Position numbers and translations under genes: made by a program. Below the pieces are notes generated by a model. It had not been told where the DNA came from. It saw only the letters and a program-made list of their open reading frames with translations, and did no database searches. Shown in pieces: positions 6,225 through 25,348 of a stretch of 25,348 bases of DNA. The stretch is from a virus. Lineage: Duplodnaviria; Caudoviricetes. Every line of letters starts with the position of its first letter. The stretch's first letter is position 1. The DNA is taken from the IMG/VR virus record IMGVR_UViG_3300024291_000025, positions 1 to 25,348 of that record. The stretch is one strand, 5' to 3'.

Positions 6225-6231
6225 TATTTAT
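6225..6231 (+). promoter_or_regulatory. putative late promoter motif TATTTAT
   Basis: Same motif precedes genes at 2276, 6242, 8642, 18037 and 23649. Confidence 0.55.
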
Positions 6232-6241
6232 TATAAAAGAT

Positions 6242-6607
6242 ATGGATTCAGATAAAGAAATATTTAACGGAAAGAAACTATCTGACCTTTTTGAAGAGAT
6301 TTATACTAACTCAAGAGAGACAAAATCTCAAGTAAAAGGATTGATTGGTGAGCTTAAACCACTAATAGAGAATATAGGAGATGCAACTCTCCTTGTTCCT
6401 ATGATTAAAGAGTATATGGAGATCGGTGTAAAGAATGATGAACACTTAATTAAACTAGCAACGGTAATACAGAGGTTAGAAGCAATTCAATCAAAAGGAG
6501 GAGATGGAGATATGTTCGACTTCTCTGAACTGCAAGATTTATTAGAGGAGCAGGAGGTTGTAAAAGAAGAATTAGTAGAGAAACCAGAAGAAGATAAAGA
6601 AGAGTAA
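6242..6607 (+). CDS. hypothetical phage protein (121 aa)
   Basis: Helical protein with acidic tail; stop overlaps the next start (TAATG). Confidence 0.8.
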   Translation: MDSDKEIFNGKKLSDLFEEIYTNSRETKSQVKGLIGELKPLIENIGDATLLVPMIKEYMEIGVKNDEHLIKLATVIQRLEAIQSKGGDGDMFDFSELQDLLEEQEVVKEELVEKPEEDKEE

Positions 6608-7788: not shown

Positions 7789-8624
7789 TGGCTTTATCAT
7801 CACAAATATCAGCTATAGTAGCAGGTCAGATAGGTAGTATCGAAGGAGAACTAGAAGCTAAAATACAGCTTGAAGCTAATAAAATGTTAGGGAAGTTCTC
7901 AAACCAATGCCCAGATAGTAAAGCATTGGTAGGAATAATTAACACAAAGAATAACCTACTATCAGGAGTAAACAACTTTCAAAAAAGATCCAATAAATTT
8001 CTTAAATTAGCAAGAAACTTAAGAAGGGCGATTAGAGCAGCAAAAGCTATACTAAGGTTCCTTAAAGTAAATCCTACACCAGTCGCTACTGGAATACCAC
8101 CAAGTGATTATGGAGGATTAATATCAGCTAAAACAGCTGGAAATTTAACATCTTTAGCAGACAGGCTTTACAATATACGGCGCTTACTAGAAAATTTAGA
8201 CGGAGATGTTTCTTCTATAGAAGACTTAGTAGCAGGAGTAGGACCGAGTTTAAGCAATATTAAAGAGGTTCTCTCCAATGTAAATGATAAAGCAGAACAG
8301 TGTATAGAGGATTTATCATCTGGTATGAAAACAGATGAAGAAAAGAAAGCGTTAAGAGAATTACTAGATAAAATACAACCTCTAGAGAATACCGGCTCAG
8401 AAGGAACTCCTAATGAGGACTACCTTTTTAAATCGGATTCAGGTAAAGCCTATAAGCTTGCAATAATAGAAGATACTAAAGGAGATGGACCTGTTCCAAG
8501 AAGATTAGCTGTAGCAAAAGATAACCTAGGTGTAATAGTACTTAGAGGACAGCCATCATTTAGCTCCGATACAGCAGTACTCCTCGCAGAATTAAAATTT
8601 AGAATAAACAACCAACTTCCATAA
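7788..8624 (+). CDS. hypothetical protein, probably virion-associated
   Basis: 278 aa ORF translationally coupled within the baseplate operon. Confidence 0.7.
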   Translation: MALSSQISAIVAGQIGSIEGELEAKIQLEANKMLGKFSNQCPDSKALVGIINTKNNLLSGVNNFQKRSNKFLKLARNLRRAIRAAKAILRFLKVNPTPVATGIPPSDYGGLISAKTAGNLTSLADRLYNIRRLLENLDGDVSSIEDLVAGVGPSLSNIKEVLSNVNDKAEQCIEDLSSGMKTDEEKKALRELLDKIQPLENTGSEGTPNEDYLFKSDSGKAYKLAIIEDTKGDGPVPRRLAVAKDNLGVIVLRGQPSFSSDTAVLLAELKFRINNQLP

Positions 8625-8630
8625 ACTAAC

Positions 8631-8638
8631 TATTTATA
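8631..8638 (+). promoter_or_regulatory. putative late promoter motif TATTTATA
   Basis: Motif fills a 17-nt intergenic gap. Confidence 0.5.
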
Positions 8639-8641
8639 ATT

Positions 8642-9064
8642 ATGAAACTCGATCAATTAAGAAACATCATACGAGAAGAAGTCAGATCAGCTGTTAAGGA
8701 AGAGTTACAAGAAGTAATGAACGAAGCAGTTAAAGCAGCAAGTACACCAACATTTACTGCTGCTCCAGGTAAGGCAATTCAAGTAGAAAAACAAACACCT
8801 ACATCAACTAATCCATTAATGGAGATGTTAGAGCAGACAAAAGCAAGTATGTCACCTGAAGAATATAAAAATATATACGCAGGAACATCAGATATGGTTC
8901 AAAAACCTAATTTTGCAACATCTATGGCTAACCAAATGGGAATGACACATTCTAACGGTAAAGCTCCAGGCTTAGATATATCTAAGTTTGATTTTGTACA
9001 AAAAGCAGGTTCAGTTTATAATAAGTCTATAGAGAAAGATAAGCAAAAACACGGAGTAGCATAA
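8642..9064 (+). CDS. hypothetical protein (140 aa)
   Basis: N-terminal MKLDQLRNIIREEVRSAVKEEL helix. Confidence 0.75.
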   Translation: MKLDQLRNIIREEVRSAVKEELQEVMNEAVKAASTPTFTAAPGKAIQVEKQTPTSTNPLMEMLEQTKASMSPEEYKNIYAGTSDMVQKPNFATSMANQMGMTHSNGKAPGLDISKFDFVQKAGSVYNKSIEKDKQKHGVA

Positions 9065-9066
9065 TT

Positions 9067-9477
9067 ATGGCATTTAATAGCAGAAGAATTAATCCATTAG
9101 ATTTACAACCAAGAAAAGCGATAGGAGTATCCCTACCTCTATCAGGACAAGCTGTATTTAATTCAACATACGTTACAAAAGACGCTATTAGAACAAACCT
9201 AATTAACTACTTTCTTACAGGGCAAGGAGAACGGTATATGAACCCAAGCTTCGGAACAATACTTAGGAACTTAATGTTCGAAAATATAAACCAAGGAATG
9301 GTGGATAGAATTAAAAATACAGTTAGAGCTGGGTTATCTGAATATTTTCCAACAGTAGTACCTGTAGATTTTAGAGTTGAAGCTGAACCAGATTCAAACA
9401 TAGTTACGTTATTACTTAAATATGCTATCCAGAATACAAACATTGAAGATGAGGTAGTAATAAATTTTGAACAATAA
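9067..9477 (+). CDS. baseplate wedge subunit, gp25/GPW-like
   Basis: AIRTNLINYFLTGQGERYMNPSFGTILRNLMFE signature. Confidence 0.85.
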   Translation: MAFNSRRINPLDLQPRKAIGVSLPLSGQAVFNSTYVTKDAIRTNLINYFLTGQGERYMNPSFGTILRNLMFENINQGMVDRIKNTVRAGLSEYFPTVVPVDFRVEAEPDSNIVTLLLKYAIQNTNIEDEVVINFEQ

Positions 9478-11303
9478 TGGCAGAAATTAGAGATATAAAA
9501 TACGTAGCAAGAGAGTTTTCGGATTATAAGCAAGAATTAGTAGAGTTTGCGAAAAACTACTTTCCAGACTCATACAACGACTTCTCACCAACATCACCTG
9601 GAATGATGTTTATAGAAATGGCTGCCTATGTTGGAGATATCCTTTCATTCTACCAAGACACCCAACTTCAAGAAACTTTCCTACAATACGCTAAAGAACC
9701 TGGTAACCTATACTCAATGGCTTATATGATGGGATATAGACCTAAAGTGACTAATGCCTCAGAGGTAGAATTAACAGTATCTCAAAACATCGGTGCAAAT
9801 CCTACAACAAACGAACCAAATTGGGACCAGGCACTAGTAGTTAGCGAAAACACAACAATAACTTCAACCGCTAAAGGACGAGCAAATTTCTTTATAGAAA
9901 ATAAAATTGATTTTAATTTTTCTAGTTCCTACGATCCTACTGATATTGTAATAAGTCAAATTACTGCAGGAATACCATCAGAATTTACTTTATCAAAAAA
10001 AGTAAAAGCTTTTTCAGGAACAGTCAGGTCAACATCTCAAACGTTTTCAACAGCAGAGAAGTTTACAACAATAACGATAGAAGATTCAAATATTATTGGA
10101 GTATTGGATATTACAGACGATACTAGTGATGATATGACTACATGGTATGAAGTACCATATTTAGGACAAGATAGTGTGTTCATAGAACAAACAAATATAA
10201 ACTCAGACATAGATAAAGTCCCTAACTCTATACTATTACAGAAGGTTCCTAAGAGGTTTGTATCTAGGTTTAATTCCAATGGCCACTTAGAAATACAATT
10301 CGGTGCAGGAACAGTAGGAGCAGATGATAATACATTTACACCAGACCCTACTAATGTAGGAATGGGAACTTTACAAGGAATATCAACAATAGATAGAGCA
10401 TACGATCCATCTAACTTTCTATACACCGGTACATACGGATTAGCACCTTCTAATACAACCTTAACAATAAGATACATAGTAGGAGGAGGGGTTGAAGCTA
10501 ACGTACCTGCTAATACATTAACAGGATATAACGCAACAGTAACAGCAGTTGATAATGAATATGAATCAACTTTAAGCTTTAATAACTTACTTGCAGCTAC
10601 AGGTGGAAAAGATGGCGATACAATCGAAGAAATACGTCAAAACACTCTTAGAGCATTTTCAGAGCAAAAAAGAACCGTGACCCTTCAAGATTATACTGTT
10701 AGAGCACTCTCTTTAGACCCTAAGTTTGGTACTATAGCTAAAGCATTCGTAACACACGATGAACTAAACAGCACAAAATCCTCAACAGATTCAATTATAG
10801 ACAGTAATCCATTAGCGTTATCTCTGTACGTTCTAGCATACAACAACGATAAACACTTAATTACAGCAACTGAAACACTAAAAAATAACTTAAAGACGTA
10901 TATGGCATATTATATGCCGTTAACAGATGCACTGAATATAAAAGATGCATTTGTAGTAAACATAGGAGTTAATTTTGACATACTAGTAAGACCTAATTTT
11001 AATAGTAGGGACGTACTCCTAAAGTGTAATAATGCACTTCAAGACTTCTTTAAGATAACTAAATGGAACATAAATCAACCTATTAACGTATCTACAATAT
11101 ACAGCTTATTAGATAAGGTAACAGGTGTACAGACAGTTAGTAAGGTAGAAGTAGTAAACAAACAAGGAGGTAAATACTCAGAGTACGCTTACGATATAAA
11201 AGGAGCAACTAGAAATAACGTTATATATCCATCGTACGATACAATGATATTTGAATTAAAATATGCGAACGAAGATATAAAAGGAAGAACAACAGTATTA
11301 TAA
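9477..11303 (+). CDS. baseplate wedge protein, T4 gp6 / baseplate J-like
   Basis: EFSDYKQEL...YNDFS...GMMFIEMAAYVGDILSFYQD, AATGGKDGDTIEEIR and RTVTLQDY motifs; follows the gp25-like gene. Confidence 0.85.
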   Translation: MAEIRDIKYVAREFSDYKQELVEFAKNYFPDSYNDFSPTSPGMMFIEMAAYVGDILSFYQDTQLQETFLQYAKEPGNLYSMAYMMGYRPKVTNASEVELTVSQNIGANPTTNEPNWDQALVVSENTTITSTAKGRANFFIENKIDFNFSSSYDPTDIVISQITAGIPSEFTLSKKVKAFSGTVRSTSQTFSTAEKFTTITIEDSNIIGVLDITDDTSDDMTTWYEVPYLGQDSVFIEQTNINSDIDKVPNSILLQKVPKRFVSRFNSNGHLEIQFGAGTVGADDNTFTPDPTNVGMGTLQGISTIDRAYDPSNFLYTGTYGLAPSNTTLTIRYIVGGGVEANVPANTLTGYNATVTAVDNEYESTLSFNNLLAATGGKDGDTIEEIRQNTLRAFSEQKRTVTLQDYTVRALSLDPKFGTIAKAFVTHDELNSTKSSTDSIIDSNPLALSLYVLAYNNDKHLITATETLKNNLKTYMAYYMPLTDALNIKDAFVVNIGVNFDILVRPNFNSRDVLLKCNNALQDFFKITKWNINQPINVSTIYSLLDKVTGVQTVSKVEVVNKQGGKYSEYAYDIKGATRNNVIYPSYDTMIFELKYANEDIKGRTTVL

Positions 11304-11304
11304 T

Positions 11305-12438
11305 ATGGCAATTTACAGAATATTTCCAGAGAAAGACACATTCATATATACAGAGCAACTAACAAGTAATGCTGGTAAAGATGAAATAATAGAAATCGCA
11401 GGGTACCCTGGAACCTTAGATGGTACAGGACAAGCAAGTCGAATATTAACTAAATTCTCTAGTGAAGAAATAGACGATATAATACTAAATAAAGTCACAC
11501 CAGCAGCTCTAAACTCTATGAGCTCTAGTATCAAACTATACCTTGCTAGCGCAACAGAACTACCCGTAGAATACACCTTATACGCATACCCAATACACAC
11601 TAACGGCTCATCAGATTGGGATAACGGTACCGGGAAATTCGGTGATATACCTATAAATTTATCAGGAGCAAATTGGACTTATAGAAAAGCTAATTTACAA
11701 GCATCTTGGAATACATCAAACTTTACTCAATATACGACAGCATCTTTCATTGAAGGAAAAGAAGGAGGAGGTAACTGGTATACAGCATCTAACGGAGAGT
11801 CAATGGAATTTTTCCAATCTCACAGTATGTCATCAACACATGATATGGATATAAACGTTACACCTGCTATTAAACAGATGTACAGTTCTGATTTAGAAAA
11901 CAAAGGATTTATAATTAAGCTTCAAAAAGAATACGAACACAGTGTAGATTCAGCTATAAAACTTAAATACTTCGGTAAAGATACTAATACAATTTACCCA
12001 CCCGTATTAGAATTCGGTTGGGATGATAGGGTGTTTGACCAGGGTACGTTACCTTTATTAGATACCGATATGTCTGTAATTGACGTAAAAAACAACAGAG
12101 GTGAATACGCAGATGTAGGAAAACAGAGATTTAGAATTACAGCTAAGCCTCAATATCCAACTAGAACTTTTACAACATCATCTGTATACCTTAACAACTA
12201 CGTACTACCTTCAGCATCGTACTGGGGATTGAGAGATGAAAACACAGAAGAAATGGTAATTGATTTTAGCACAGATTTTACTAAGATTAGTTGTGATCCT
12301 GAAGGATCCTTCTTCGACATTTACATGGATGGGTTGCAACCTGAGAGATTTTATCGTATATTAGTAAAGACAGAGATTAAAGGCAGTGACGTTGTGGTAG
12401 ATAATCGTAATATCTTTAAAATTGTACGAAATGGCTAA
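11305..12438 (+). CDS. virion structural protein, possible DNRLRE-like beta domain
   Basis: IFPEKDTFIY...SRILTKF...NKGFIIK...PVLEF pattern; position in the baseplate module. Confidence 0.5.
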   Translation: MAIYRIFPEKDTFIYTEQLTSNAGKDEIIEIAGYPGTLDGTGQASRILTKFSSEEIDDIILNKVTPAALNSMSSSIKLYLASATELPVEYTLYAYPIHTNGSSDWDNGTGKFGDIPINLSGANWTYRKANLQASWNTSNFTQYTTASFIEGKEGGGNWYTASNGESMEFFQSHSMSSTHDMDINVTPAIKQMYSSDLENKGFIIKLQKEYEHSVDSAIKLKYFGKDTNTIYPPVLEFGWDDRVFDQGTLPLLDTDMSVIDVKNNRGEYADVGKQRFRITAKPQYPTRTFTTSSVYLNNYVLPSASYWGLRDENTEEMVIDFSTDFTKISCDPEGSFFDIYMDGLQPERFYRILVKTEIKGSDVVVDNRNIFKIVRNG

Positions 12439-12769
12439 GGAGAGAGTAAGAATAGAAAAGCAGTCATATAAAAGAAGACAAATACGTACTTCTTTAGATA
12501 CAGAGTTTAACACGTTTAAAGAAGAAGTAGAAGAAGTAGACTTAGATACAGTAGAGGAATTTTTTAGACTTTACGATAAACTATTCTTCTCTATCCCTGT
12601 AGATGGTGAAAATAACTCTCATACATACATATTGGAAAAAAGTTCGGAATTAACAGATTTTGATAAAAATACCGATGATATACAGCCACTACTTGACGAA
12701 ATAACACAGCTTAGGGAACAACTTTTAGATGCTAATCAACAAATTTTTGATTTGCAAAATCAATTATAA
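12431..12769 (+). CDS. hypothetical protein with C-terminal coiled coil (start revised from 12422)
   Basis: ATG at 12431 overlaps the previous stop; IQPLLDEITQLREQLL heptads. Confidence 0.75.
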   Translation: MAKERVRIEKQSYKRRQIRTSLDTEFNTFKEEVEEVDLDTVEEFFRLYDKLFFSIPVDGENNSHTYILEKSSELTDFDKNTDDIQPLLDEITQLREQLLDANQQIFDLQNQL

Positions 12770-12772
12770 TAT

Positions 12773-15700
12773 ATGGTAGAGATAAAATATAATATATTCG
12801 AAATAGATTCAAACAATCTACTAAGATTAGATGTTGTCTCTGACGAAAACTTAAAAAGCTACTTAGAAGAAGTTACAGTACCGGGTACTTTTATACCAAA
12901 TGAGGATTTTATTGAACTGTCTTACTATACGTTAGACAATACACAGCTCCTATCTGTAAACAACTATACTAGGTACTCGGTATTATCAGGTGACTCTAAA
13001 ACATCAGTTCAGGGTAACTCAGAAATAGCAATAGACCCTTTAGAAGATTATAAAATATACTACAACGATAGTTCAGAAGTTAAAGCCCTCTACCATTTTT
13101 TAAGAAATCCCTTTAGAGTACAGGATACAGATTCAACATTCTCTATAGAAAGCATTTCCCCCGATAGGACAGAGCTAAGACTTATCCCTATAAGTTTAGG
13201 AGCTACAACAGTAAACCAACTAACTAGTAAATTAGAAGATAGGTTAGAAAGCTCTACCTATAATTTAGACATACATCTATACAGTAATGATGACATATTT
13301 TACCCAATTGTAAATGTAGGGTATAGGGACTTTAGAGGTACAACAGCAGTAGTTGTTAAATTAGCGGATCCTATCCCACAATCAGTTAAGGTATATAGTG
13401 TGTTTTCTATCGTAGAGAAAATATCTAATTCATTAGCTTTTGAAATTAACACAACTCTAACAGAAGAGACTCCACCAGTACCGACCCTTAGAGGTGCGAA
13501 CTTTAATATAGGAGTAGGTGAGCAGACAAATGAAGCATCAGAATACTTTAACTACAACGAGTTATTTAGTTTTCCTACAAATAATAGCAATAGGGAATTA
13601 AACTCTCTATTCAATGAAAAAGGAGCAGAACTTGGATTAGACTATTCGGAATTCAATAATTTTATCAATTTCTCATCAATAGAAGAGAGACTTAGAAACT
13701 TTAAATATAAGATTGATTTAGTCGAATCTTATCAAACAAGTTTGGATATAATAAATTCAACTGGAAATACATACAATGTAGGAGGTATAACAGGTAGTAG
13801 AGATTATTATGAAAACTTACTAGACGGAATAGTGAATAACTTTGACCACTATGAGAGAAGCCTATACTACGAAAGTGGCTCTAATTCTTGGCCAAAATCA
13901 AATAACACTAAACCATACAATAACCAACAATCATCAACACCAGAATCAACAACCTGGTACTCTGCTAGACTACAAGAAGCAGTGTTATACGATGCTCGAA
14001 ATCCAAACATACTTACCAATACTATTCCCTCGTACCTGAAGGAGGATGCAAGTAACGACCCGTACAACTTATTTATCAATATGATTGGTCAACATTTTGA
14101 TAACTTATGGGTATATACAGATGCAGTCTCAAAGAAATACGATAACGATAATAGACTAAATAGAGGGGTATCAAAAGACTTAGTAGAGGAGCTACTTAAA
14201 AATTTCGGGATTAAACTATACACTAGTAATAAATCAGCAGAAGATTTATTTAAGTACTTTATTGTGAATTCCTACGATATTAGCGATGAATATTTACCAT
14301 CAGGAATTATAGATTCAGGAGAACAGCCTTTATCTCAAAACGATTACCAAAAAGAAATATATAAGAGAATTTACCACAACCTACCAATTCTTCTTAAAAG
14401 TAAAGGAACAGAAAGAGGTTTAAGAGCATTGATAAACTGTTTTGGAATCCCTTCTGATATACTAAAAATTAAAATTTTCGGAGGACAATCGGCTTTAGAT
14501 TTACCTTATTTTGGAGGAGAGCAAGCTTGGACAGGTTCAATAGGTAAAATTAGGTTAGATAATACAGGTAGTATCGTAGAAGGAAACACACTATCTTACT
14601 ATACCGGCATAACAAGAGGAGACAGTAAATATACACAAGACCTACACAGAATTGAAGTTGGATTTTCCCCTTCTGATAATATGGATGCATATATCGTCTC
14701 TCAATCAGCAGTTTTATTCCCTGATAATCCTTTTAACATAGATGATTACATAGGAGATCCTAGAGGATATATCAGCAACATCTACCCTGATTTATACGAA
14801 TACTCTAAAATCATATTTGAAAATGTAGATTCATATGATTTAAAAGATTTTGTTAGGTTAATAAAGTTTTTCGATAACGTAGTTTTTAGAATGATCAAAG
14901 ACTTTGTTCCTGCAAGAGCAGTAACAGATACAGGTATAATTATAAAACCTCACCTACTAGAGCGATACCACGCCAAATCACCGGTTATGACATGGACAAG
15001 ACCGGAATATAGCGGCTCTATAGATACAGCATTTATCTCCGGTTCTAATGCAGGAGCATATAAAAATATAGGTATAGGATCTTACGGGAGTTTATTTAAA
15101 AGAGAATCATCAACAAGAGCTGCAAACGTTATTCAAACACCTAGAGGAAAGTATAATCGATTTGATAAAACTCATGAGGAACCGAAATTTAACGGCGAAC
15201 TTAAAAGAGCTAACATTAGAGTAACAGACGGAGAATTAAACAGAGATAATCCATTTAAGAATCTAAAATACCCTATAGTAGAGTACACAGTTCAATTTCA
15301 TAAAGATCCCGCCGACGATCTATGTTACCTAAATACATCACCCCTTGATCGCTTTCCTTTAAACCCACAAGCACCATCTGCCAATACATACCCACTTCCT
15401 ACACTGTTTACCAATGTATCAAACATTATAGACTTTAACATATTAAGGGACGGTACCGTAACACAGGTACTAGGAAGTAATGTAAGTTACGATTTTACAA
15501 ACAACAATCAATATTCGCAATACGAAATAATAGAGGTAAATGCATTCCACCCAACTATAGTAGGTTGTGAGAATACAAGGGAGGTAATATTAGTAGTATG
15601 TGATTTAACTTTTCTTGCAGATCAACTGCCGATAACACTTACACCAGATCAAAGTTATAACTTTACAAATGCAATACAAACAAGTGTTAACGAAACATTA

Positions 15701-16672
15701 GAATACACTCTCGGCGGTATAACGATACCTAACCCAAGTAACCATATAATCAACTTCGACGACTACGATAATAATTCAACTATAACACTAACTGTTAAAG
15801 ATATAAACGATCCTATAGGGTGTATTGTAACCGCAGATTTTATCTTTAGTAACTGTATACTTACAAGTCTCTACCCTAAGGCATTTGTAATTCAAGGAAA
15901 TCCACCTTATATTACCCCTCCTTTTACTTTCGCCGGAGTAACTGAAAATACTATTTTTGAATTTAGAGTAATATGGGATAACACTAGTGTATTTATATCT
16001 AATGCCCTACCACCTTTTGATGCAAATAGATTCAGCGGATGGGTACCTTACGGAGAAAACGTAGCAATTCCTGCTACATCTCTAGAAGATATAATAGATA
16101 CTAATTTCTATTCAGGAGTTAATAATGTTGTAGAACACACCGGAGCATCGCCTGATGTATACGAATATACATTTACAGGTATACAAGCCCATATTGACAA
16201 CAATAGTACCCATAGTCGATTCCATAAGTTCCGTGTACAGTTCAGAGCAACATCACCAGGTAACAACTGTACAACAATCTCACAGAACCTCCACGTACTA
16301 AGCGGCACTGCTACAAACACAACTACCGAATACTATGAAATAATAGATGCATTTTATGCTCCTACTTCAGCAGGAACTAATCAACAAAATAACAGTATAT
16401 GCTGTGAAAACAACAACGCACAGATCTATTTAGGTTACTATCAAACACTAGCAGCCTGTTATAACGATGCTGACGCAACTACAGGAATACCTACTCAAAA
16501 ACCTTACTCTTCACCACCGACCGCTGCTGGTGAGTACGGCACTCTTGCCCCACAAGGGTACTACACTACAGGTAATAAGTATTGCCACTGGTCTTTAACT
16601 GGAGGAGGTACTAATGGATTTTGGGGGGATGTACGAAATTGTACAAATACAAATAATCAATTTTGTAATTAA
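12773..16672 (+). CDS. large baseplate wedge / tail-associated structural protein (1299 aa)
   Basis: LLKSKGTERGLRALINCFG motif typical of gp7/P2 gpI-like wedge proteins; Cys- and Thr-rich C-terminal domains. Confidence 0.6.
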   Translation: MVEIKYNIFEIDSNNLLRLDVVSDENLKSYLEEVTVPGTFIPNEDFIELSYYTLDNTQLLSVNNYTRYSVLSGDSKTSVQGNSEIAIDPLEDYKIYYNDSSEVKALYHFLRNPFRVQDTDSTFSIESISPDRTELRLIPISLGATTVNQLTSKLEDRLESSTYNLDIHLYSNDDIFYPIVNVGYRDFRGTTAVVVKLADPIPQSVKVYSVFSIVEKISNSLAFEINTTLTEETPPVPTLRGANFNIGVGEQTNEASEYFNYNELFSFPTNNSNRELNSLFNEKGAELGLDYSEFNNFINFSSIEERLRNFKYKIDLVESYQTSLDIINSTGNTYNVGGITGSRDYYENLLDGIVNNFDHYERSLYYESGSNSWPKSNNTKPYNNQQSSTPESTTWYSARLQEAVLYDARNPNILTNTIPSYLKEDASNDPYNLFINMIGQHFDNLWVYTDAVSKKYDNDNRLNRGVSKDLVEELLKNFGIKLYTSNKSAEDLFKYFIVNSYDISDEYLPSGIIDSGEQPLSQNDYQKEIYKRIYHNLPILLKSKGTERGLRALINCFGIPSDILKIKIFGGQSALDLPYFGGEQAWTGSIGKIRLDNTGSIVEGNTLSYYTGITRGDSKYTQDLHRIEVGFSPSDNMDAYIVSQSAVLFPDNPFNIDDYIGDPRGYISNIYPDLYEYSKIIFENVDSYDLKDFVRLIKFFDNVVFRMIKDFVPARAVTDTGIIIKPHLLERYHAKSPVMTWTRPEYSGSIDTAFISGSNAGAYKNIGIGSYGSLFKRESSTRAANVIQTPRGKYNRFDKTHEEPKFNGELKRANIRVTDGELNRDNPFKNLKYPIVEYTVQFHKDPADDLCYLNTSPLDRFPLNPQAPSANTYPLPTLFTNVSNIIDFNILRDGTVTQVLGSNVSYDFTNNNQYSQYEIIEVNAFHPTIVGCENTREVILVVCDLTFLADQLPITLTPDQSYNFTNAIQTSVNETLEYTLGGITIPNPSNHIINFDDYDNNSTITLTVKDINDPIGCIVTADFIFSNCILTSLYPKAFVIQGNPPYITPPFTFAGVTENTIFEFRVIWDNTSVFISNALPPFDANRFSGWVPYGENVAIPATSLEDIIDTNFYSGVNNVVEHTGASPDVYEYTFTGIQAHIDNNSTHSRFHKFRVQFRATSPGNNCTTISQNLHVLSGTATNTTTEYYEIIDAFYAPTSAGTNQQNNSICCENNNAQIYLGYYQTLAACYNDADATTGIPTQKPYSSPPTAAGEYGTLAPQGYYTTGNKYCHWSLTGGGTNGFWGDVRNCTNTNNQFCN

Positions 16673-16691
16673 TAAAAGTAAAGATAGATAG

Positions 16692-17975
16692 ATGACAGAA
16701 TCAATATTTATAGCACTACATGCAAATCAAGGAGTTAATGTCCTTAACATACCTGGAAGACTACACCTAAACGTTAACCCAGTTGATATTAATAATTCAA
16801 ATGAAGGGATAATAACTAGTGTAATCGTACACGTAGTAGCAGAGTCAGTAGATGGAAGCACAAATAATAGCTCCGGTCAGTTAAATATCGAATCTGTACT
16901 AGAACAGGTAGAAACAATAGAATTTAATTTTAATGAAAACCATTATACGTTAGAGATAATAAGTACAACATTTTACCCCACAGGTAATCCATTCTTCTAC
17001 TTTACAATAGACCCAGTATATATAGAAGATATATACGATGCTGCTGCTTATGAAGCTAGTATAGAAAACGTAACGTTCACCCCTTACTTAGCTGACTTAG
17101 ATTTTGGATTTAGCGACTCCAATCCACTATTCAGTAACGCTTCAGAACAGAGAGAATCAATACGTATAATGGAATCTAATAGATCTGATTCTACAGTAGT
17201 ACCTAGTAATATTGACGCGCTATTGGATGAAAAAGCCGATAAAGCAACTGTACAAGATTCACTTTATTACGATACCGGTTGGTCAAATAGCAGGTACAAA
17301 GGTTCAAAAACATCTCCTACTGATAACGCAGGAATAGATCCAGCACTATCTGGACGAAGTTTTAAAGGAGAAGGCTTTTCAATAGAGACTACAACAGATT
17401 ATATATGTCAATCCGATAATAGGTTACAGCAGGATTTTTTCCATGATGGTAACACACAGTTACCAAGGTTTACATTAGGTGATACGGCAAATGAAAACGG
17501 TATTCTAACTGGTATAGCTTCTGTAGCTATACAACAGCTTGCTGGTGGAACAGAAGGAAACCCGCAAGCTGATACTACTATAAATCATACAGAAGTAGAA
17601 GAAGGAGTTATACTACCCGGAGATCTACTAACGCTAAACCCATATGGTACAATTACTCCTGTAGAGCATATGCTAGTAGTGTCGACTGGTCCAACTCTAA
17701 CCATAGTTATAAGAGATATATTTAACGCAAGAGTACCGCTAATACTAGGAGGTACCTTTCCTGATTACCAACCAGGAACTATAATACATAAAATTAGCAA
17801 GTACAATATATTTAATATAGAGCAATCAGGACAAGCTAGACTGAACAGCGTTGGAACTCAAAGAATTTATATTGAAGGAAATAATTCAATCATTAATACC
17901 AACAAAGAAGGTGTTTTAGTATCACAAAGCTTCTGCCCGGTATTTATAAACTATGTAGATTCACCTAACGGGTAA
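16692..17975 (+). CDS. hypothetical structural protein (427 aa)
   Basis: Long acidic, beta-rich ORF within the tail module. Confidence 0.7.
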   Translation: MTESIFIALHANQGVNVLNIPGRLHLNVNPVDINNSNEGIITSVIVHVVAESVDGSTNNSSGQLNIESVLEQVETIEFNFNENHYTLEIISTTFYPTGNPFFYFTIDPVYIEDIYDAAAYEASIENVTFTPYLADLDFGFSDSNPLFSNASEQRESIRIMESNRSDSTVVPSNIDALLDEKADKATVQDSLYYDTGWSNSRYKGSKTSPTDNAGIDPALSGRSFKGEGFSIETTTDYICQSDNRLQQDFFHDGNTQLPRFTLGDTANENGILTGIASVAIQQLAGGTEGNPQADTTINHTEVEEGVILPGDLLTLNPYGTITPVEHMLVVSTGPTLTIVIRDIFNARVPLILGGTFPDYQPGTIIHKISKYNIFNIEQSGQARLNSVGTQRIYIEGNNSIINTNKEGVLVSQSFCPVFINYVDSPNG

Positions 17976-18008
17976 AAAAGTATAAACCGATAAAACATTA
18001 ATATTAGA

Positions 18009-18016
18009 TATTTATA
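18009..18016 (+). promoter_or_regulatory. putative late promoter motif TATTTATA
   Basis: Intergenic, 20 nt before ATG 18037. Confidence 0.5.
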
Positions 18017-18036
18017 TAATATACAACAAATAAAAC

Positions 18037-18696
18037 ATGGGATATTTAGATAATTCAATAGTAACTGTCGATGCTATATTGACAAAAAAAGGTAGAGAAC
18101 TACTTGCAAGAGGAGACGGCTCTTTTAAAATCACACAATTCGCACTTTCTGATGATGAGATTGACTATACACTATACAATCCAGACCATCCATTAGGATC
18201 AGCTTACTACGGCCAAGCAATAGAAAACTTACCATTATTAGAAGCATTTCCTGATGAAACTCAGATAATGAAATATAAACTTACTACCCTACCAAGAGGA
18301 ACTGCAAAACTTCCAATACTAGATATAGGTTACACAGCTATAAGATTAAAGCAAGGAGCTTCTTTAGCAATTACCCCACAAACTCTCAACTACTTAGGTT
18401 CATCCCAAACCTTTGAAGCAGGAGGATATGTAGCAATCATTGCAGATGCTAGAGTTCTTCAAACATATAACGGTGTTGGAATTAACACACCAGAAGCTGA
18501 AAGACTTAATTCAACTACTACCCTAGGTACTAATGTATCTAAAACAGTAATAGGAACATCAATAAACATAACAGGAACTACAATCAACACTTTATTTGCA
18601 GGTCAGACTTCTCTTCAAACAACAATAACAGTGATAGGAAGAGATTCTGGAGCTAGAGTAACAGTACCATTAACGATTGTAAAAGTAAATAACTAA
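18037..18696 (+). CDS. baseplate/tail-fibre attachment structural protein
   Basis: AILTKKGRELLA...ITQFALSDDEIDY resembles the N-termini of tail-collar/fibre-attachment proteins. Confidence 0.5.
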   Translation: MGYLDNSIVTVDAILTKKGRELLARGDGSFKITQFALSDDEIDYTLYNPDHPLGSAYYGQAIENLPLLEAFPDETQIMKYKLTTLPRGTAKLPILDIGYTAIRLKQGASLAITPQTLNYLGSSQTFEAGGYVAIIADARVLQTYNGVGINTPEAERLNSTTTLGTNVSKTVIGTSINITGTTINTLFAGQTSLQTTITVIGRDSGARVTVPLTIVKVNN

Positions 18697-18702
18697 TAAG
18701 AT

Positions 18703-19722
18703 ATGTCATTTAAAAGATTAGACCCAGAAGATATTTCTATAAGTGCAGAATCAGTAGTAGCACCACTATGGTCAACAGATACTAAGTACCTAACAACATT
18801 TCATACAGCATCAGGACAGGTAGCTGGAAATACAGGTAATTACTTTTACGAAGTATATGAAAATAACCCTGCAGGAGATGTGCCAGCAAACGTGCAGTTT
18901 GCTATAGCGTACGGAAATAAGAACGGCCTTGGCTCAGCACCCTATACATCAGGAGGACAATCAGTATCGGGAAAATCTCCTTCATCAACAATTTACGGCC
19001 AATACAGAAATTTAATATTTGGAGATGAAGAAACAGGATTTATATTCAACACAGTTGAATCAGATTCTATTTATGTAATAAGCGTAGATAGAGCAAGGTA
19101 TAAAGAAAAACTGCTACCCGGTTCTTTTAATTTACGATTACAGAAAACTGATAACAGTGCACCACTTAACTTAACCGATAACAGTAAAGACTTAACGACA
19201 GTATCTTATGTAGATGCAGGAAGAGTTTACGATATAGTAGAAGGGTTTGACGGTAGTGCAACATCAGGAACAGGATATTCAACAAATAACGGAAGCTACG
19301 GAAAATTTCTACCTGATGTAGGTATTATAATCCTAAACGGAGAAGCGCTACAATCAAATTCAGGTATAAGTATAGATCATAACACTGGAGTAGACGGATC
19401 AGGAACACCAAACCTACAGCACTTTTATAACGCTATTGAATTTGGAGCTAGTAGCTCTCTTCAATCAGAAGAAACTATATCATCTAATTACGTATTTGTA
19501 AGAGTCCGAAATAGTGAATTTAACTATACTACCAATCCATCAAATATTACAAGCTCAGGAGAGTTAAGGCATAATATTATGATCAATACTCCCCAAGCAT
19601 ATATCACAACAGTAGGAATGTATAATGATAATAACGACTTACTAGGAGTTGCTAAACTTTCAAGACCGCTCCTTAAAGACTTTACAAAAGAAGCCCTTAT
19701 TAGAATTAAACTTGATTATTAA
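18703..19722 (+). CDS. virion structural protein (paralog 1)
   Basis: C-terminal EFNYTTNP...YITTVGMYNDNNDLLGVAKLSRPL..RIKLDY. Confidence 0.6.
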   Translation: MSFKRLDPEDISISAESVVAPLWSTDTKYLTTFHTASGQVAGNTGNYFYEVYENNPAGDVPANVQFAIAYGNKNGLGSAPYTSGGQSVSGKSPSSTIYGQYRNLIFGDEETGFIFNTVESDSIYVISVDRARYKEKLLPGSFNLRLQKTDNSAPLNLTDNSKDLTTVSYVDAGRVYDIVEGFDGSATSGTGYSTNNGSYGKFLPDVGIIILNGEALQSNSGISIDHNTGVDGSGTPNLQHFYNAIEFGASSSLQSEETISSNYVFVRVRNSEFNYTTNPSNITSSGELRHNIMINTPQAYITTVGMYNDNNDLLGVAKLSRPLLKDFTKEALIRIKLDY

Positions 19723-19725
19723 TGA

Positions 19726-21402
19726 ATGAGTGCTTACAAAAAACTAAATCAACAAGATGCGTATATAACTACCTACACTGCCCGCAAATCGTGGATAGCA
19801 AGTGGGAGTCAATATAGGGAACTAGGTATACAGAATATCGTAGGTTTATCCGGCTCCGGAGTATATATTCCGAAAGATGCAGATATAACATATGGTGGAA
19901 ATGTTTCTAATTCTGGAAGCACTGCGTACAATAAAAGACTAGTTTACGAAAGTAACCAGCACCTATACTTTAGCAGCTTCAACGATTCAGTTCTTACAAC
20001 TTCGTCATCTTACGAAAACTACTTACAATCTTCTTACGAAGTAAGTGGTTCTAGGCATTTAGATAACAGGATAGCTATTTTTTCTCTTCCTAAAGAAATG
20101 TACGGAATACATATAGATCCGTTTTCTATTTCAATAACGCCAGATTTCCTAGCAGGAACAGGTGGTTCGGATGGCTTTGATAATTACGTAGTCAATAACT
20201 ACAGCACCGAAGAGGGTGTGGATTCTTTTGAAACTGAAGTAAACCTCTATATTGAAAATACAGATTTTCTATTTAGTTCAACAGGTGCAACTTGTGCATT
20301 TCCAACAGAAGACTACTTAGAAGAAGAATCAACCTATGTAGATGAATCAACACCTGCAGGAGGAGAATATCTAGATAACATAGATACTACACAGAAAAAC
20401 TGTAATGAGATAGTAGACGATGGAGAAGGTAGGCTATATTTTAAATACTCATCTCCTAGATACTACGTCGGTAATGTAATATATCCACACGGTCAAATAA
20501 TAATAACCGATACAGTAGTAGCTATGTACTACAACCACTACTTTGACGCTGTGTTGAGATGGAAGTCTACCTTACCTATATTCACTCATAACTATCACTG
20601 TAGGATAAAAAGTGGGGAATTTAACCACACTTTGAACAGAACAGCACTAACAGGAACTGACGGACAAATTGCAGATAATATATCAGGCTCATCCTTTAAT
20701 CCATATATAACTTCTATTGGACTATACAACGACAGTAACGAACTAATAGCAGTTGGTAAAATGGGACAACCGCTCCCAAAATCACCAGAAACAGATACAG
20801 TTATATTAACCAAGTTTGATATGAATTTTGGTGTTAACAGACTACCGGAAGGATATATCATACCTACAGTCGTAGAAGAAGAAGAGGATGATACACCGGT
20901 ACTAGACTGTACTTATAACTTTGTAGTACAAAATGCAATATACGAAACAGGAGAAAGTGTTAGAAGAAGCTTTAAAAAACCAAGAGCAAAAGGTAAGAGA
21001 AGATTAACAGATAACGGTAGCTATAGGTTATATAGAAGAAAATACGCATTTGATCCTCTAGGGACATACCCAGCTAGCATAGAAATAGTAAAAGACTATA
21101 ATAACCCAGTAGGTAACGGCTTTATTAAATTGGAAAAAGAAGAGATGAATAACTACAACAGAACTATGTGTTATACGGATATTAAAGTAGATAAGTACAT
21201 ATCTCCATCGGGGGTAATAACTTACGAATACGACTTCTATAACTACAACCCAGGTGAAGATGCAATAAATCCTAGCTCAACATACCCAGTCGTAAGGTAT
21301 AGATCAATACCAGGTAGATCAAAACAATTCTTTAAGGATATAATAGAAGACTATTTATTAAGAAACGAACTACCTTGTGTTTTTCCAATAGTACAAGCAT
21401 AG
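19726..21402 (+). CDS. virion structural protein (paralog 2, C-terminally extended)
   Basis: EFNHTLN...YITSIGLYNDSNELIAVGKMGQPL..TKFD followed by about 190 extra residues. Confidence 0.6.
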   Translation: MSAYKKLNQQDAYITTYTARKSWIASGSQYRELGIQNIVGLSGSGVYIPKDADITYGGNVSNSGSTAYNKRLVYESNQHLYFSSFNDSVLTTSSSYENYLQSSYEVSGSRHLDNRIAIFSLPKEMYGIHIDPFSISITPDFLAGTGGSDGFDNYVVNNYSTEEGVDSFETEVNLYIENTDFLFSSTGATCAFPTEDYLEEESTYVDESTPAGGEYLDNIDTTQKNCNEIVDDGEGRLYFKYSSPRYYVGNVIYPHGQIIITDTVVAMYYNHYFDAVLRWKSTLPIFTHNYHCRIKSGEFNHTLNRTALTGTDGQIADNISGSSFNPYITSIGLYNDSNELIAVGKMGQPLPKSPETDTVILTKFDMNFGVNRLPEGYIIPTVVEEEEDDTPVLDCTYNFVVQNAIYETGESVRRSFKKPRAKGKRRLTDNGSYRLYRRKYAFDPLGTYPASIEIVKDYNNPVGNGFIKLEKEEMNNYNRTMCYTDIKVDKYISPSGVITYEYDFYNYNPGEDAINPSSTYPVVRYRSIPGRSKQFFKDIIEDYLLRNELPCVFPIVQA

Positions 21403-21455
21403 CATGATTAACAGTAAAACTAAAAAAAAAGAAAAAAAATAATGAAATAAAAAAC

Positions 21456-21681
21456 AGTCCAGAATAAACTGGGTGAATTGCTGGGAAATCTTTAGAGCTC
21501 TAACTACCAAAGCGTAACAATGTTAGAGATTAGACAATCAGCAGCCAAGCTACAAGCCATCTTGTAGAAGGTTCAGAGACTACTGGAGGGAAAATGGGTT
21601 CCCTTAATAACCAGAATTAGCGCCCAGCAGGAGTAATCCTGATGATATAGTCCGATCTTTATGGAGACATAAAGCTAACAG
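21456..21681 (+). ncRNA. group I intron ribozyme (IA-like), ORF-less, with apparently permuted splice-site order
   Basis: Elements P AATTGCTGGGAA 21476-87, Q AATCAGCAG 21536-44, R GTTCAGAGACTA 21571-82, S ATGATATAGTCC 21642-53. Helices: P3 CTGGGTG 21469-75/CGCCCAG 21621-27; P5a CTCTAAC/GTTAGAG; P6a CTACAAG/CTTGTAG; P7 GACTA/TAGTC; P7.1 CTGG..AGGGAA/TTCCCT..CCAG; P8 CAGGA-GTAA-TCCTG; P9 CTTTATG-GAGA-CATAAAG; candidate omega-G 21681. Confidence 0.93.
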
Positions 21682-21765
21682 TAATGAGAGCAGGCAGACA
21701 ATGGGCCTAAGAAACTCTACCGCTGGAAACATAAAGAAACGCAAAGCTACCGAGTCGCACTGGAT
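21682..21765 (+). other. predicted back-spliced 84-nt exon (circular RNA) with a stop-free frame
   Basis: Lies between candidate omega-G 21681 and CTGGAT (21760-65), which pairs with IGS GTCCAG (21457-62) ending in a U-G wobble. Confidence 0.6.
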
Positions 21766-21790
21766 TAACACCATTACAATAAAAAAATAA
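21701..21790 (+). CDS. short ORF spanning the exon (29 aa in linear form)
   Basis: MGLRNSTAGNIKKRKATESHWINTITIKK*; becomes endless if 21765 is joined to 21682. Confidence 0.45.
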   Translation: MGLRNSTAGNIKKRKATESHWINTITIKK

Positions 21791-21794
21791 AAGA

Positions 21795-23612
21795 ATGAGT
21801 ATAGTACTTAGAACAAACAAAGGATCAGCTTTGACTTATGATGAGATGGATAGAAATCAATCTCAATTTTTCTATTCAAGCTCTAAGTCCCCGGATGGTC
21901 TCAAACTGAGACTACACTACACTGGAAGTGATAACTTAGATACAACAGAAGACTACGGACCAACAAGGTACCATGAAGTATCCTTTCCCTTATTTGAATC
22001 AGAAATACCCGACTCCAATGTAGCAGGAGATAATACCCAGATACAGTTTAATGATAACGGGAATTTCGGAGCTGACTCTGTATTTGTGTTTACTGATAAT
22101 AACCATTCCGTAGGTATTGGGACAACTACTCCCCTAAAGCGGTTAGACATAGTAGGAGATGGAGCAAGAGGAGGAAATATAGCACTAAGAGGTAGTGTGA
22201 ATCACGAAGGAGAAATACAATCACTTGCAGGTATTGAATTTTATAATGGAAACACAGACGCAACTCTCTTAGGAAAAGTAGGTAGGTTAGAGTATATCGA
22301 TAGCGATTTTGCAGATGATATATTTATACATTCAGGTGATCATAATATCAGCTCTGGATTTGTTCCAGAACCAAACGATCCAAGATCTGTTCATATATCC
22401 TTAGGAAGAACAACTCTAAGTACAACCCCAGCAAACCGCATTGGAGCGACATTTAAAAGAATAGGTAGCAGTCCTTATATAACCGTAGGAATAAACAATA
22501 CAGATTCTATATTAAATTTATCAGTAGTAGGAAATAACGGTATAGGAATATCCCATACTAACACAGCTACCAACGATCATTCGAGACTTAAATCGATAAA
22601 ATCAAATAACTCATACTTCCTGCAGGAAACGGCACTGGGACTAAGAAAATTGCTACCACATCAATCAATTGCTGAAGGGTTGGAAATTAGCTCTCCAAAT
22701 ACAAGCAATGGAGGTAATGTACTAATGGTAATAAACACCGATTCAGAAGCTAAAGAAGGATTCAATATAATTACAACCCAAAACTCTTCTGCACCTAATG
22801 CAACAGTGCTAGCTACCTTTCAAGCATCCGGTAAGGTAGGTATAGGTACTAATTTTCCTGCACATACAGGATTAACAATACAGGAACAGCTTTCTATTAA
22901 AAGTTTAACAGAATCTGACCCTCTTACAGAAATTAGTAGAACACTAGTTGCAGATTCAACCGGATTAGTTAAAGAAGTTGTTGCAGCACCAGTACCAAAA
23001 GGAGGTATTATAATGTGGTCAGGAGCTACGAATGCTATACCAGAAGGATGGAGACTTTGTAAAAATGGAGTAGGAGAGGTAAATGGTGTAACTGTACCTA
23101 ATTTATCTAATAAATTTATAATAGCATCTAGTAACAGTACTGGAACTCCAACTACAACAATACTAGGTACAGGCGCAACCTCTACAGGTGGAAGTAATAC
23201 ACATAATCATGGAGGTAATACACAAAATACTACATTAACATTAAGTCAAATACCTGCACACGATCATATACCTGATACAATGCAAGGAAGATTTAGACAC
23301 CTTACTGCATGGGTACACCCAAGCCTTGATGGAGCTACTGGAGGTTCTGGTACTAACACTAATACAATATACGGAAACTTAGTAGACGGTGTAGGAAATA
23401 CAGGTACATCTTTTGATGATAACGCAGGAGGTGAAGGTGCAGAGATTATATCACAAATTGCCTTCCCAGGACCACCAAACGGAATTTCATCCATTAGCAA
23501 CATGGCTATTAAATCAGAAGGAGGCAACGCTGCTCACAAACACGTTATAGATGCAGCTTCAAATATACCTCAGTTTTATGCTTTAGCATATATAATTTAT
23601 GTGGGAGTGTAA
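21795..23612 (+). CDS. tail fibre protein with tail-collar domain
   Basis: VGIGTTTP/VGIGTNFP repeats; VPKGGIIMWSG..IPEGWRLC..VPNLSNKFI collar; HNH/HDH/HKH motifs; YALAYII terminus. Confidence 0.8.
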   Translation: MSIVLRTNKGSALTYDEMDRNQSQFFYSSSKSPDGLKLRLHYTGSDNLDTTEDYGPTRYHEVSFPLFESEIPDSNVAGDNTQIQFNDNGNFGADSVFVFTDNNHSVGIGTTTPLKRLDIVGDGARGGNIALRGSVNHEGEIQSLAGIEFYNGNTDATLLGKVGRLEYIDSDFADDIFIHSGDHNISSGFVPEPNDPRSVHISLGRTTLSTTPANRIGATFKRIGSSPYITVGINNTDSILNLSVVGNNGIGISHTNTATNDHSRLKSIKSNNSYFLQETALGLRKLLPHQSIAEGLEISSPNTSNGGNVLMVINTDSEAKEGFNIITTQNSSAPNATVLATFQASGKVGIGTNFPAHTGLTIQEQLSIKSLTESDPLTEISRTLVADSTGLVKEVVAAPVPKGGIIMWSGATNAIPEGWRLCKNGVGEVNGVTVPNLSNKFIIASSNSTGTPTTTILGTGATSTGGSNTHNHGGNTQNTTLTLSQIPAHDHIPDTMQGRFRHLTAWVHPSLDGATGGSGTNTNTIYGNLVDGVGNTGTSFDDNAGGEGAEIISQIAFPGPPNGISSISNMAIKSEGGNAAHKHVIDAASNIPQFYALAYIIYVGV

Positions 23613-23627
23613 TAAGAATATAAAAGA

Positions 23628-23635
23628 TATTTATA
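23628..23635 (+). promoter_or_regulatory. putative late promoter motif TATTTATA
   Basis: Intergenic, 13 nt before ATG 23649. Confidence 0.5.
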
Positions 23636-23648
23636 ATAAAAATATATA

Positions 23649-25348
23649 ATGGCAATACCGGGATTAACATATAGGATAGAAAAAGAAAGTTCTTTGACCC
23701 ATCTTGAGATGGATAATAATTTTAGATCAGTTATCTATTCTGGTTCTATTCACGATAGTGGAACTACCCTTCACTTACATTACGATACTGCTGTAGAAGA
23801 TAAAATCATAATACCCTTAGGAGCAGCATCAGCAGGATTTACTATACTAAATAATACAAACGATAATGTATTGACTGCAACAGGTCAAACAGCAACTCTA
23901 CAAGGAGAATCGGGATTAAAATTTAGCTCTCCAAACAGTTTACTTACTTTAATAGGTAGAGCATCCATTGATGATGGATTCGGTAATGTTATACTAGGTG
24001 CTGGAGCAGGTGATAACCTAACCAGTGGAGATGGAGTGAAAAACGTACTAGTAGGTAGAGACTCTGGAACTATAGTAGATGGAAATAGAAACGTAGCAGT
24101 AGGGTATAGATCACTATTCAGTGCAGATGGACTTGATGATTCTGTAGCAATAGGAGAACTAGCATTTAGTACATTAATATCCGGAGCAAATAATGTAGCA
24201 TTAGGACGACAAGCAGGATCAACATTAACTGCAGGTAGCGGGAATATATACATAGGAAATGGAGCTGGTCCAGTTTTCAGTAGTACACAAAGTAATAAGT
24301 TGTATATAAACAACCAAGCAAGTAATGTACCTTTAATTCTTGGAGACTTTAGTACAGGAACAGTAGTATTTAATTCTACAGTATCAGCCTCTTACTTTAG
24401 TGGTTCATATTATGGAGATGGTTCAAACTTAACAGGATTAACAGCAACATCAGAATGGGACGGTACTAGAGATGGGGATGGTGAAATAACCGGTTCCTTC
24501 ACAGTATCAGGTTCAAACGTTATCGTAGACTTTACAGCAGTAGAAGCTATATCAGGCTCAATATTCTCTGGGTCGTTCTATGGAGATGGAAGTAACTTAA
24601 CAGGAATAACAGCAGACTCATTTCCATACACTGGTTCAGCAAGGATATCAGGAAGTTTAAGAGTAGATGGACCTGCTCAAATAACAGGGTCATTCACAGT
24701 AAGCGGTTCAAGCCCAGAAATATACCTGAAAGGAGACACCTATATTGACGATAACATACGTATAAAAAATATAGCTGAACGTGCTTTCGGTATCGGAGTA
24801 AAAGCATTGAATGAATCTAACGCTAATGAAGGAATTGCTATAGGATTTGAATCAGGAGTAAGAGCTAGAAGTAACAGTACCCTTATTGGAAATTATACAG
24901 GGTATAACGCCGGTAATAGTTCGACATTCGTAGGTCAAGGAGCTGGAGCTACTATAGCCGGTAAATATAATACAGCTATTGGTGCTAATACCTTACAAGG
25001 ACAGGAAGGAAAAGGAGACAAAAATACAGCATTAGGATATGATGCAGGAAACGCTATTCTAAGCGGTAATAGGAATACCGCTATTGGATATCAGTCTTTA
25101 TATAACCATCCAGACGGTAACCACAATACTGCTATAGGTTATCAAGCTCTATTTTACCTAGACTCCAAGTTTGACAATAATACTGCAATAGGAAGTAATG
25201 CAGGTGAGTTAGCCAAAGGAAACGGAAATGTATTTATCGGATATAAAGCAGGACCTCAATCAACCGGTACTGTAAACCTTAACGATAAATTATATATTAA
25301 CAACGAGCAATCTAATACTCCATTAATAAAAGGAGATTTTAATTTAGG
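23649..25348 (+). CDS. tail fibre / adhesin-like protein with YadA-like head repeats (truncated by window end)
   Basis: Open from MAIPGLTYRIEKESSLTHLEMDNNF to the window end; many NTAIG/NVAVG/NVFIG repeats, two YGDGSNLTG and two KLYINN..SN.PLI.GDF motifs; not in the ORF track because it has no stop. Confidence 0.85.
   Translation, partial: MAIPGLTYRIEKESSLTHLEMDNNFRSVIYSGSIHDSGTTLHLHYDTAVEDKIIIPLGAASAGFTILNNTNDNVLTATGQTATLQGESGLKFSSPNSLLTLIGRASIDDGFGNVILGAGAGDNLTSGDGVKNVLVGRDSGTIVDGNRNVAVGYRSLFSADGLDDSVAIGELAFSTLISGANNVALGRQAGSTLTAGSGNIYIGNGAGPVFSSTQSNKLYINNQASNVPLILGDFSTGTVVFNSTVSASYFSGSYYGDGSNLTGLTATSEWDGTRDGDGEITGSFTVSGSNVIVDFTAVEAISGSIFSGSFYGDGSNLTGITADSFPYTGSARISGSLRVDGPAQITGSFTVSGSSPEIYLKGDTYIDDNIRIKNIAERAFGIGVKALNESNANEGIAIGFESGVRARSNSTLIGNYTGYNAGNSSTFVGQGAGATIAGKYNTAIGANTLQGQEGKGDKNTALGYDAGNAILSGNRNTAIGYQSLYNHPDGNHNTAIGYQALFYLDSKFDNNTAIGSNAGELAKGNGNVFIGYKAGPQSTGTVNLNDKLYINNEQSNTPLIKGDFNL

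Follow-up and report, generated by a model that had tools for sequence, protein, structure and literature searches.

A stand-alone group I ribozyme of a marine tailed phage, opened at the P1 loop, that likely closes a short exon into a circle

The window, the whole stretch of 25,348 nucleotides that was analysed, is a fragment of a large tailed phage and carries on its + strand a stand-alone group I ribozyme opened at the loop of P1. The ribozyme most likely cuts after U21765 and closes 79 bases into a circle, a reading to which a probability of about 0.92 was assigned. It is real and likely to be active in vivo. It has a group I fold but is not a conventional intron: the 5' splice site lies downstream, and the flanking open reading frames (ORFs) are whole. 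The source phage is marine, and seawater RNA libraries contain the exact back-joined sequence.

Baseplate and tail families flank the ribozyme on both sides, and the product of the 339-aa gene two upstream of it showed 64% identity to a protein of Flavobacterium phage vB_FspM_immuto. An Rfam search of the whole window returned a single match, to the group I family RF00028 at 21439-21674 (81.2 bits, E 1.7e-19; family cut-off 50). Relatives in the ribozyme family scored 76.6 to 101.2 bits against the same model. Group II families (D5, D6, branch point) gave no match at E values up to 1, and the group I model covered the entire stretch. Core helices were assigned from the sequence and the group I consensus. 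The catalytic core occupies 21469..21653 in the Rfam alignment and lacks P2. It comprises P3 (21469-75/21621-27), P4 (21479-84/21538-43), P5a and P6a, P7 (21576-82/21648-53), a P7.1 extension (21583-21614) and P8, a 14-nt hairpin (21628-41), all on the + strand. The G-binding pair of P7 is G21578-C21652, with a bulged A21577; G21578 and C21652 were invariant in 26 of 26 variants. A P9 hairpin with a GNRA loop follows at 21657-74 (+), within an element spanning 21654..21686 in which P9.0 is putative. An invariant bulge of P7.1 (21603-21608) was seen by eye to be complementary, in many variants, to four to seven letters at or just past the cut (21764-21780), a possible additional tertiary pairing.

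Two late genes, ORFs 19726-21402 and 21795-23612, flank the ribozyme; both are intact, and the interval separating them encodes nothing of 60 aa or longer. The preliminary description had placed a complete group I core between two intact genes, with no homing endonuclease and no interrupted host gene; the whole ORFs, and the score above cut-off in the group I model search that it had suggested, agree with that account. The downstream ORF (21795..23612, +) is a fibre-like tail gene that begins downstream of the cut and was assigned to PHROG 5795 (tail protein, E 1.8e-17). The A-rich stretch at 21766..21794 (+) would form the leader of the released downstream RNA, presumably with a G added at its 5' end. 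Empty-site relatives were also found, in which the same two neighbouring genes occur without the ribozyme.

The internal guide sequence, AGTCCAG (21456..21462, +), forms the 3' strand of P1 and ends 6 nt before P3 (21469), with G21457 as the wobble partner. The substrate strand of P1, CTGGATT, is at 21760..21766 (+), and the 5' splice site lies between U21765 and U21766. A U.G wobble in P1 marks the 5' splice site of group I introns. The seven pairs between these two segments were as first described. So too was the upstream region, said to hold only an A tract and no local P1: within 100 nt upstream, pairing with the guide reached at most 4 of 6 positions, against 6 of 6 downstream. The guide hexamer alone was not enriched in the window (10 seen against 8.9 expected). 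Full guide matches occurred only three times on the + strand of the 25,348 nt, and about 0.014 would be expected within 120 nt of the core. The case rests on covariation and on the RNA data rather than on this count. A second guide-matching site, at 22354-60, was considered and rejected, a site at that distance being found in only 2 of 29 variants.

Only P3, P7.1 and the 3' end served to define the family, with the target unused, and its members came from pattern and protein scans and phage BLAST. The resulting 103 hits, many of them the same contig repeated, were reduced to 29 distinct variants, with four partial hits excluded. The best downstream guide partner matched at 5 or more of 6 positions in all 29. 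P1 pair -1 was U.G, pair -2 was A-U and pairs -3 and -4 were G-C, each in 29 of 29 variants. Pair -5 was Watson-Crick throughout the 29 (U-A 15, A-U 8, C-G 5, G-C 1); shuffling gave a mean of 10.8, and none of 10,000 shuffles reached 29, in a test that ignores kinship among variants of which 26 are close kin. Pair +1 was also Watson-Crick in 29 of 29 (U-A 26, C-G 2, A-U 1), a count reached by 1 of 10,000 shuffles with kinship again ignored, and pair -6 was Watson-Crick in just 14 of 29. Although the shuffles are blind to kinship, the presence of four kinds of pair at -5 and of three at +1 requires at least five double changes. Covariation of guide and downstream site in homologs, proposed at the outset as a check, was thus found at -5 and +1. 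In the conventional relative L324, the guide G likewise lies 12 nt before P3 and the substrate letters are identical, within an ordinary local P1 hairpin; the guide register is therefore fixed independently. For P10, nothing beyond one pair was found.

Among the matches listed, 20 runs contain part of the stretch, 9 of which are on record as RNA. Seven runs were examined (X1, X2, X3, X4, X5, X6 and X10), all as assembled contigs that carry no strand information. A back-joint from 21765 to 21687, recorded as 'goes back 79', was present in X1 and X5, two of the four runs tabulated together (X1, X2, X4, X5), at depths of 16.7 and 3.6 respectively, and no letters were shared by the two sides of the joint. 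X1 and X5 belong to different studies, though maybe to one campaign. X2 and X4 showed no such joint in that table, and their uncovered parts prove nothing. In a second table (X1, X3, X6, X10; 20-kb stretch) it was listed in no run, even X1; since that table omits the known X1 joint, it is unreadable as absence, for X3 and X6 included. The X5 record is 109 nt long and comprises 21727-21765 followed by 21687-21756; its last 30 letters repeat its first 30, which makes a closed cycle (79+30). X10, from a third study (2021; RNA type presumed), holds a record of 109 nt that opens with 79 letters identical to 21687-21765; its depth is 24.6, against 3-5 for neighbouring pieces. From its length and its first 79 letters, we infer that this record is a closed cycle as well. 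The DNA contigs examined contained a single linear copy of the stretch.

As the RNA joint lands at 21687, omega-G at the 3' splice site is G21686 (+) and the circle is 79 nt. G21686 was invariant in 26 of 26 aligned variants, and G21681 varied among relatives. The same 3' end signature was found at 91 distinct loci, and those outside the family mostly entered coding-like sequence right after the G, as judged by eye. The preliminary description had put the cut after U21765 with P1 opened at its loop, which is upheld by the covariation and by a contig back-joint leaving exactly U21765. Its junction, CTGGAT joined to TAATGAG, implied G21681 as omega-G and proved wrong: the joint lands on 21687, and G21681 is not conserved. 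Because the true junction is 21765 to 21687, primers for the earlier one would miss it. The 84-nt circle with an endless reading frame that G21681 would produce was rejected on the same grounds. Seven forward joints were listed elsewhere (window 5574-24828), all with 'between: not known' and short sides of 20-44 nt; they probably come from other organisms.

In group I splicing, guanosine attacks at the 5' site and the freed 3'-OH then attacks at the 3' site. In the phage, late transcription would start near 21361, and the guide would pair with 21760-66, a step to which the covariation lends support. By group I chemistry, guanosine would attack after U21765 and free the tail-gene RNA with an added 5' G. 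The 3'-OH of U21765 would then attack at G21686, consistent with the junction present in RNA contigs. Finally, a stem between the circle ends may displace the guide and make the reaction one-way.

Contigs cannot tell a circle from a tandem copy, and the junction might have arisen with no circle at all, from splicing between two transcripts (which would give a linear doubled exon), as a reverse-transcription artefact or by DNA duplication. This was judged very unlikely: the two sides of the joint coincide to the letter with the U.G site and the invariant G and have no letters in common, the record in X5 runs back into itself with no linear entry or exit, and the examined DNA contigs carry one linear copy. 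An ordinary intron with its 5' exon far upstream or on another transcript would be extremely improbable. Guide-matching sites do occur at 895 and 6720, and relatives with long P1-loop inserts exist. However, the flanking ORFs are whole, the covariation points to the downstream site, the back-joint in RNA contigs contradicts a distant exon, and the complete immuto_2-6A genome has one group I match only.

The back-spliced exon (21687..21765, +; 79 nt) has a G+C content of 0.49, and its ends can pair. The end duplex was calculated at -9.1 kcal/mol, a strength reached by 4 of 200 shuffles; among the 24 circles of at least 35 nt, 19 had an end duplex stronger than the mean of their shuffles. As the end stem overlaps the P1 substrate strand, it would push the circle off the guide. 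Across variants, circle length ranged from 17 to 80 nt and was not tied to a multiple of three, and G+C was 0.44-0.67 against about 0.35 for the genome. In 13 pairs, identity was 0.91-1.00 in the core; it was 0.52-0.96 at the third codon positions of the following gene and 0.39-0.84 in the circles, and identical cores carry unrelated circles. Selection appears to act on catalysis but not on the circle sequence.

In circles of 77-79 nt, a short helix (window 21720-21750) with two compensatory changes between variants was seen by eye, and these changes suggest that this subfamily keeps an internal fold. The circle resembles the c-di-GMP-I aptamer. A riboswitch was therefore considered; no Rfam family matched the circle at E values up to 10 in a search of the linear stretch 21675-21800. 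Coding circles were rejected: lengths are not tied to three, and the 79-nt circle has stops in every frame when read round.

A TATTTAT motif at 21352..21360 (+) is likely to be a late promoter for the ribozyme transcript. In 28 of 29 variants the motif occurs no more than 200 nt upstream of the guide. It was overall no commoner than chance in the window, and of its 16 copies on the + strand, 5 are followed by an ORF start after 11-28 nt. RNA contigs started at 21361-21379 in X2, X4, X5, X6 and X10 (a weak hint, the RNA type of X10 being presumed), and contigs in X1 and X3 ran across the motif. At window 5518-6222, a weak Sigma70_r2 match (E 0.024, below cut-off) marks a candidate late sigma factor for TATTTAT.

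Two subtypes of the ribozyme were distinguished. The gene-linked subtype comprises 26 variants, with circles of 41-80 nt and, in 26 of 26, the ATG of the gene 24-30 nt past the cut. The stand-alone subtype comprises three variants (immuto_2-6A, L365 and L393), in which the guide lies 3-5 nt past the TATTTAT motif and the predicted circles are 17-19 nt, that of immuto_2-6A being 18 nt. The first of these is carried by the cultured Flavobacterium phage immuto_2-6A and has a terminator after the predicted cut. At L250:2988-3122, an annotated 44-aa hypothetical gene (immuto26A_226) overlies the ribozyme core and is probably no gene.

The C-terminal domain of ORF 19726-21402 (20890..21402, +; approximately 170 aa) is linked to the ribozyme. 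A profile search, with most members already in the profile, placed the domain (120-190 aa) upstream of 28 of the 29 variants; the matches of L365 and L393, neither of which belonged to the profile, were weak (E 1.5e-3 and 1.7e-6). Assessment was possible at 23 of 33 syntenic loci: 8 (four distinct variants) carry the ribozyme together with an extension of about 185 aa at the C-terminus of the upstream protein, and 15 carry neither. Two complete relatives lacked both. The partner domain was fused to different proteins or stood alone, as the separate ORF immuto26A_225 in immuto_2-6A. In the gene-linked subtype, TATTTAT lies in the last codons of the domain, so the link between domain and ribozyme is explicable without any binding. 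L068 is the sole variant without the partner domain (725 nt upstream), yet it keeps the motif-bearing last codons.

The partner domain was analysed with 18 cluster representatives and gave no Pfam or PDB-sequence match. Its structural model (pLDDT 74) had no Foldseek match in PDB or BFVD, an absence that does not prove a new fold. The best VIA match had a Z of 3.6 and an rmsd of 3.6 over 83 aligned positions, and the top Atlas score was 0.87 with low recognition, which is a lead only. No loci were found for the distant domain homolog P0017.

Loci L255, L284 and L407 hold P2-less introns in ribonucleotide reductase genes, with an ORF in the P1 loop, very short 3' domains and a P7.1 extension in common with the window ribozyme. 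We take the P1-loop ORFs to be LAGLIDADG-like or endonuclease-like, and the conventional phage introns discussed here are presumably subgroup IA-like. The S-PM2 psbA intron was among the phage BLAST matches. L324 carries its conventional intron (approximately 1310-1545) close to a gene start, and in L127 the guide of a conventional intron also matches a site in its own 3' domain (5.5/6). At L253:1018-2152, a conventional group I intron that carries an ORF on the reverse strand interrupts the T-loop of a tmRNA-like gene; the tmRNA-like call was made from the tag frame and exon ends, and ARAGORN did not call it. In L253, a helix of about 10 pairs also joins the segment before P3 to the segment after P9, at the place of the permuted P1 and without a U.G, and is a possible evolutionary link to that P1.

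A total of 126 distinct viral group I cores were sampled, of which 72 were assessable and 54 were not; 7 of the 72 had a downstream guide match and none looked permuted when inspected, in a rough screen that would miss most forms with P2. Four pattern hits came from bacterial and archaeal genomes, two of them conventional introns and two without a core. A single origin of the permuted form was not rejected (p-AU 0.133). In the tree, two stand-alone copies grouped with conventional introns.

Among putative roles, RNA processing was ranked first, tentatively and at clearly less than even odds. The circle would then be a disposable linker, and the lasting products would be a cut-free downstream RNA and a ribozyme with an emptied guide. 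The stand-alone subtype, with its terminator after the cut, is a misfit with this role. Its copies have a promoter-like motif, in immuto a terminator, and no gene to process, which argues for the circle as the functional product, a stable, small, structured late RNA handled by the linked domain as decoy, ligand or virion cargo. Such a role is conceivable but doubtful. In X10 the circle record exceeds its flanks in depth, and in X5 it forms an isolated cycle; the circles are G+C-rich (0.44-0.67) in a genome of about 0.35, 19 of 24 have an end duplex stronger than the mean of the shuffles, and the domain co-occurs with the ribozyme. However, both the sequence and the length of the circle vary, even where cores are identical; the depth of contigs is an unreliable measure, and rolling-circle reverse transcription favours circles; and the domain link may merely reflect the promoter motif in the domain's last codons.

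It is unlikely that the ribozyme is a relic, a conventional intron left without its upstream exon that acquired a mimic downstream and is kept without benefit. The P7.1 extension of conventional P2-less relatives (L255, L284 and L407, with an endonuclease-like ORF in the P1 loop) fits such a descent, as does the absence of the ribozyme from many syntenic phages and two complete relatives, but conservation of the core exceeds that of third codon positions nearby, P1 has stayed paired through at least five double changes, and the ribozyme, accompanied by the same partner domain, appears in three or more gene contexts. Release of the circle might also mature a pro-ribozyme, whose core, with an empty guide and a free 3' omega-G, would cut or recombine RNAs at NGGAU in trans. 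This was considered quite unlikely. The two subtypes have a single product in common, the matured core; guide positions -1 to -4 are the same in all 29 variants while the circle varies; and the stand-alone guide lies 3-5 nt past the promoter-like motif, as in an engineered trans-splicing ribozyme. Against this, no trans product was seen, pairing with the guide is weak at -7.4 kcal/mol, the + strand of the phage itself contains 25 partial sites, and invariance of the guide may reflect shared descent.

A broader, speculative proposal, to which little confidence is attached, is a dedicated phage ribozyme-protein system. A late promoter-driven, non-intron ribozyme would yield a variable circle and a guide-emptied active core, and a co-travelling virion-protein domain of new fold would bind, chaperone or package one of these RNAs. 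Because cultured immuto_2-6A carries a stand-alone copy, the question of why circle-making ribozymes persist becomes directly testable by genetics.

In a literature search that covered mainly the main text of openly accessible papers, no report of natural P1-opened or phage group I back-splicing was found, and PMC10085705 contained no passage on group I introns. The preliminary description had known of no described natural phage group I equivalent. This stood for the phage and P1-opened forms, but coral mitochondria offer a described case of group I back-splicing in nature (PMC6545197). In the papers searched, the P1-opened, gene-free layout occurs solely as a laboratory design.

The conventional phage introns L255, L284, L407 and L324 resemble the window ribozyme in core, lack of P2 and 3' end signature, the first three also in the P7.1 extension and L324 in guide register. 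Unlike it, they have an upstream 5' splice site and restore a gene. Engineered self-targeting and splicing (STS) group I constructs (Lee 2023, Cui 2023; reviewed in PMC11394858) place a guide at the 5' end, the cargo after omega-G and an NNNNNU target at the 3' end of the cargo, and give a circle; the P1 helix alone is reported to be sufficient. The phage ribozyme has the same order of guide, core, omega-G, cargo and NNNNNU target, as had been recognised when its topology was likened to engineered circularisation constructs. In contrast to the STS designs, which are laboratory constructs based on Tetrahymena (PMC11394858), it is natural and phage-encoded, spans approximately 230 nt from guide to omega-G and has neither P2 nor added antisense arms. 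It is a natural version of the engineers' scar-free circular RNA layout, with junction evidence in vivo at contig level. Its core is compact, its circles are unrelated and of 17-80 nt, and it seemingly needs only a P1 of 5-7 pairs; these properties make it a candidate circularisation tool.

ND5-717 of corallimorpharian mitochondria is a natural case of group I back-splicing in which a permuted precursor gives a circular exon RNA (PMC6545197). It is opened by a giant P8 insert in a circular genome, the circle is 2.1 kb and the ND5 gene is restored. The phage ribozyme is alike in that the back-splice joint was found in contigs, with circularity deduced from the closed-cycle records; it differs from ND5-717 (PMC6545197) in having a contiguous core, an opened P1, a circle of 17-80 nt and no gene restored. 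Lariat-capping ribozymes are group I-derived and process the 5' end of a downstream mRNA, branching in one step (PMC8637638). The phage ribozyme is likewise a group I-derived RNA that would act on a downstream mRNA 5' end, but two-site ligation was seen, and the downstream gene encodes a tail protein and no endonuclease.

Closest in biology are the circularly permuted group II ribozymes, which are described in PMC8637638 as stand-alone and ORF-less, with reversed splice sites less than 100 nt apart and a small circle as product; their role is given there as not known, and the associated gene is likewise without known function. The phage ribozyme shares the stand-alone, ORF-less form, the reversed splice sites at a distance below 100 nt, the small circle and the associated gene. 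The group II ribozymes use branching chemistry and have their splice sites inside the ribozyme (PMC8637638), whereas the phage ribozyme has a group I fold and a circle outside its 3' end. Group I introns thereby gain a counterpart to the permuted group II ribozymes.
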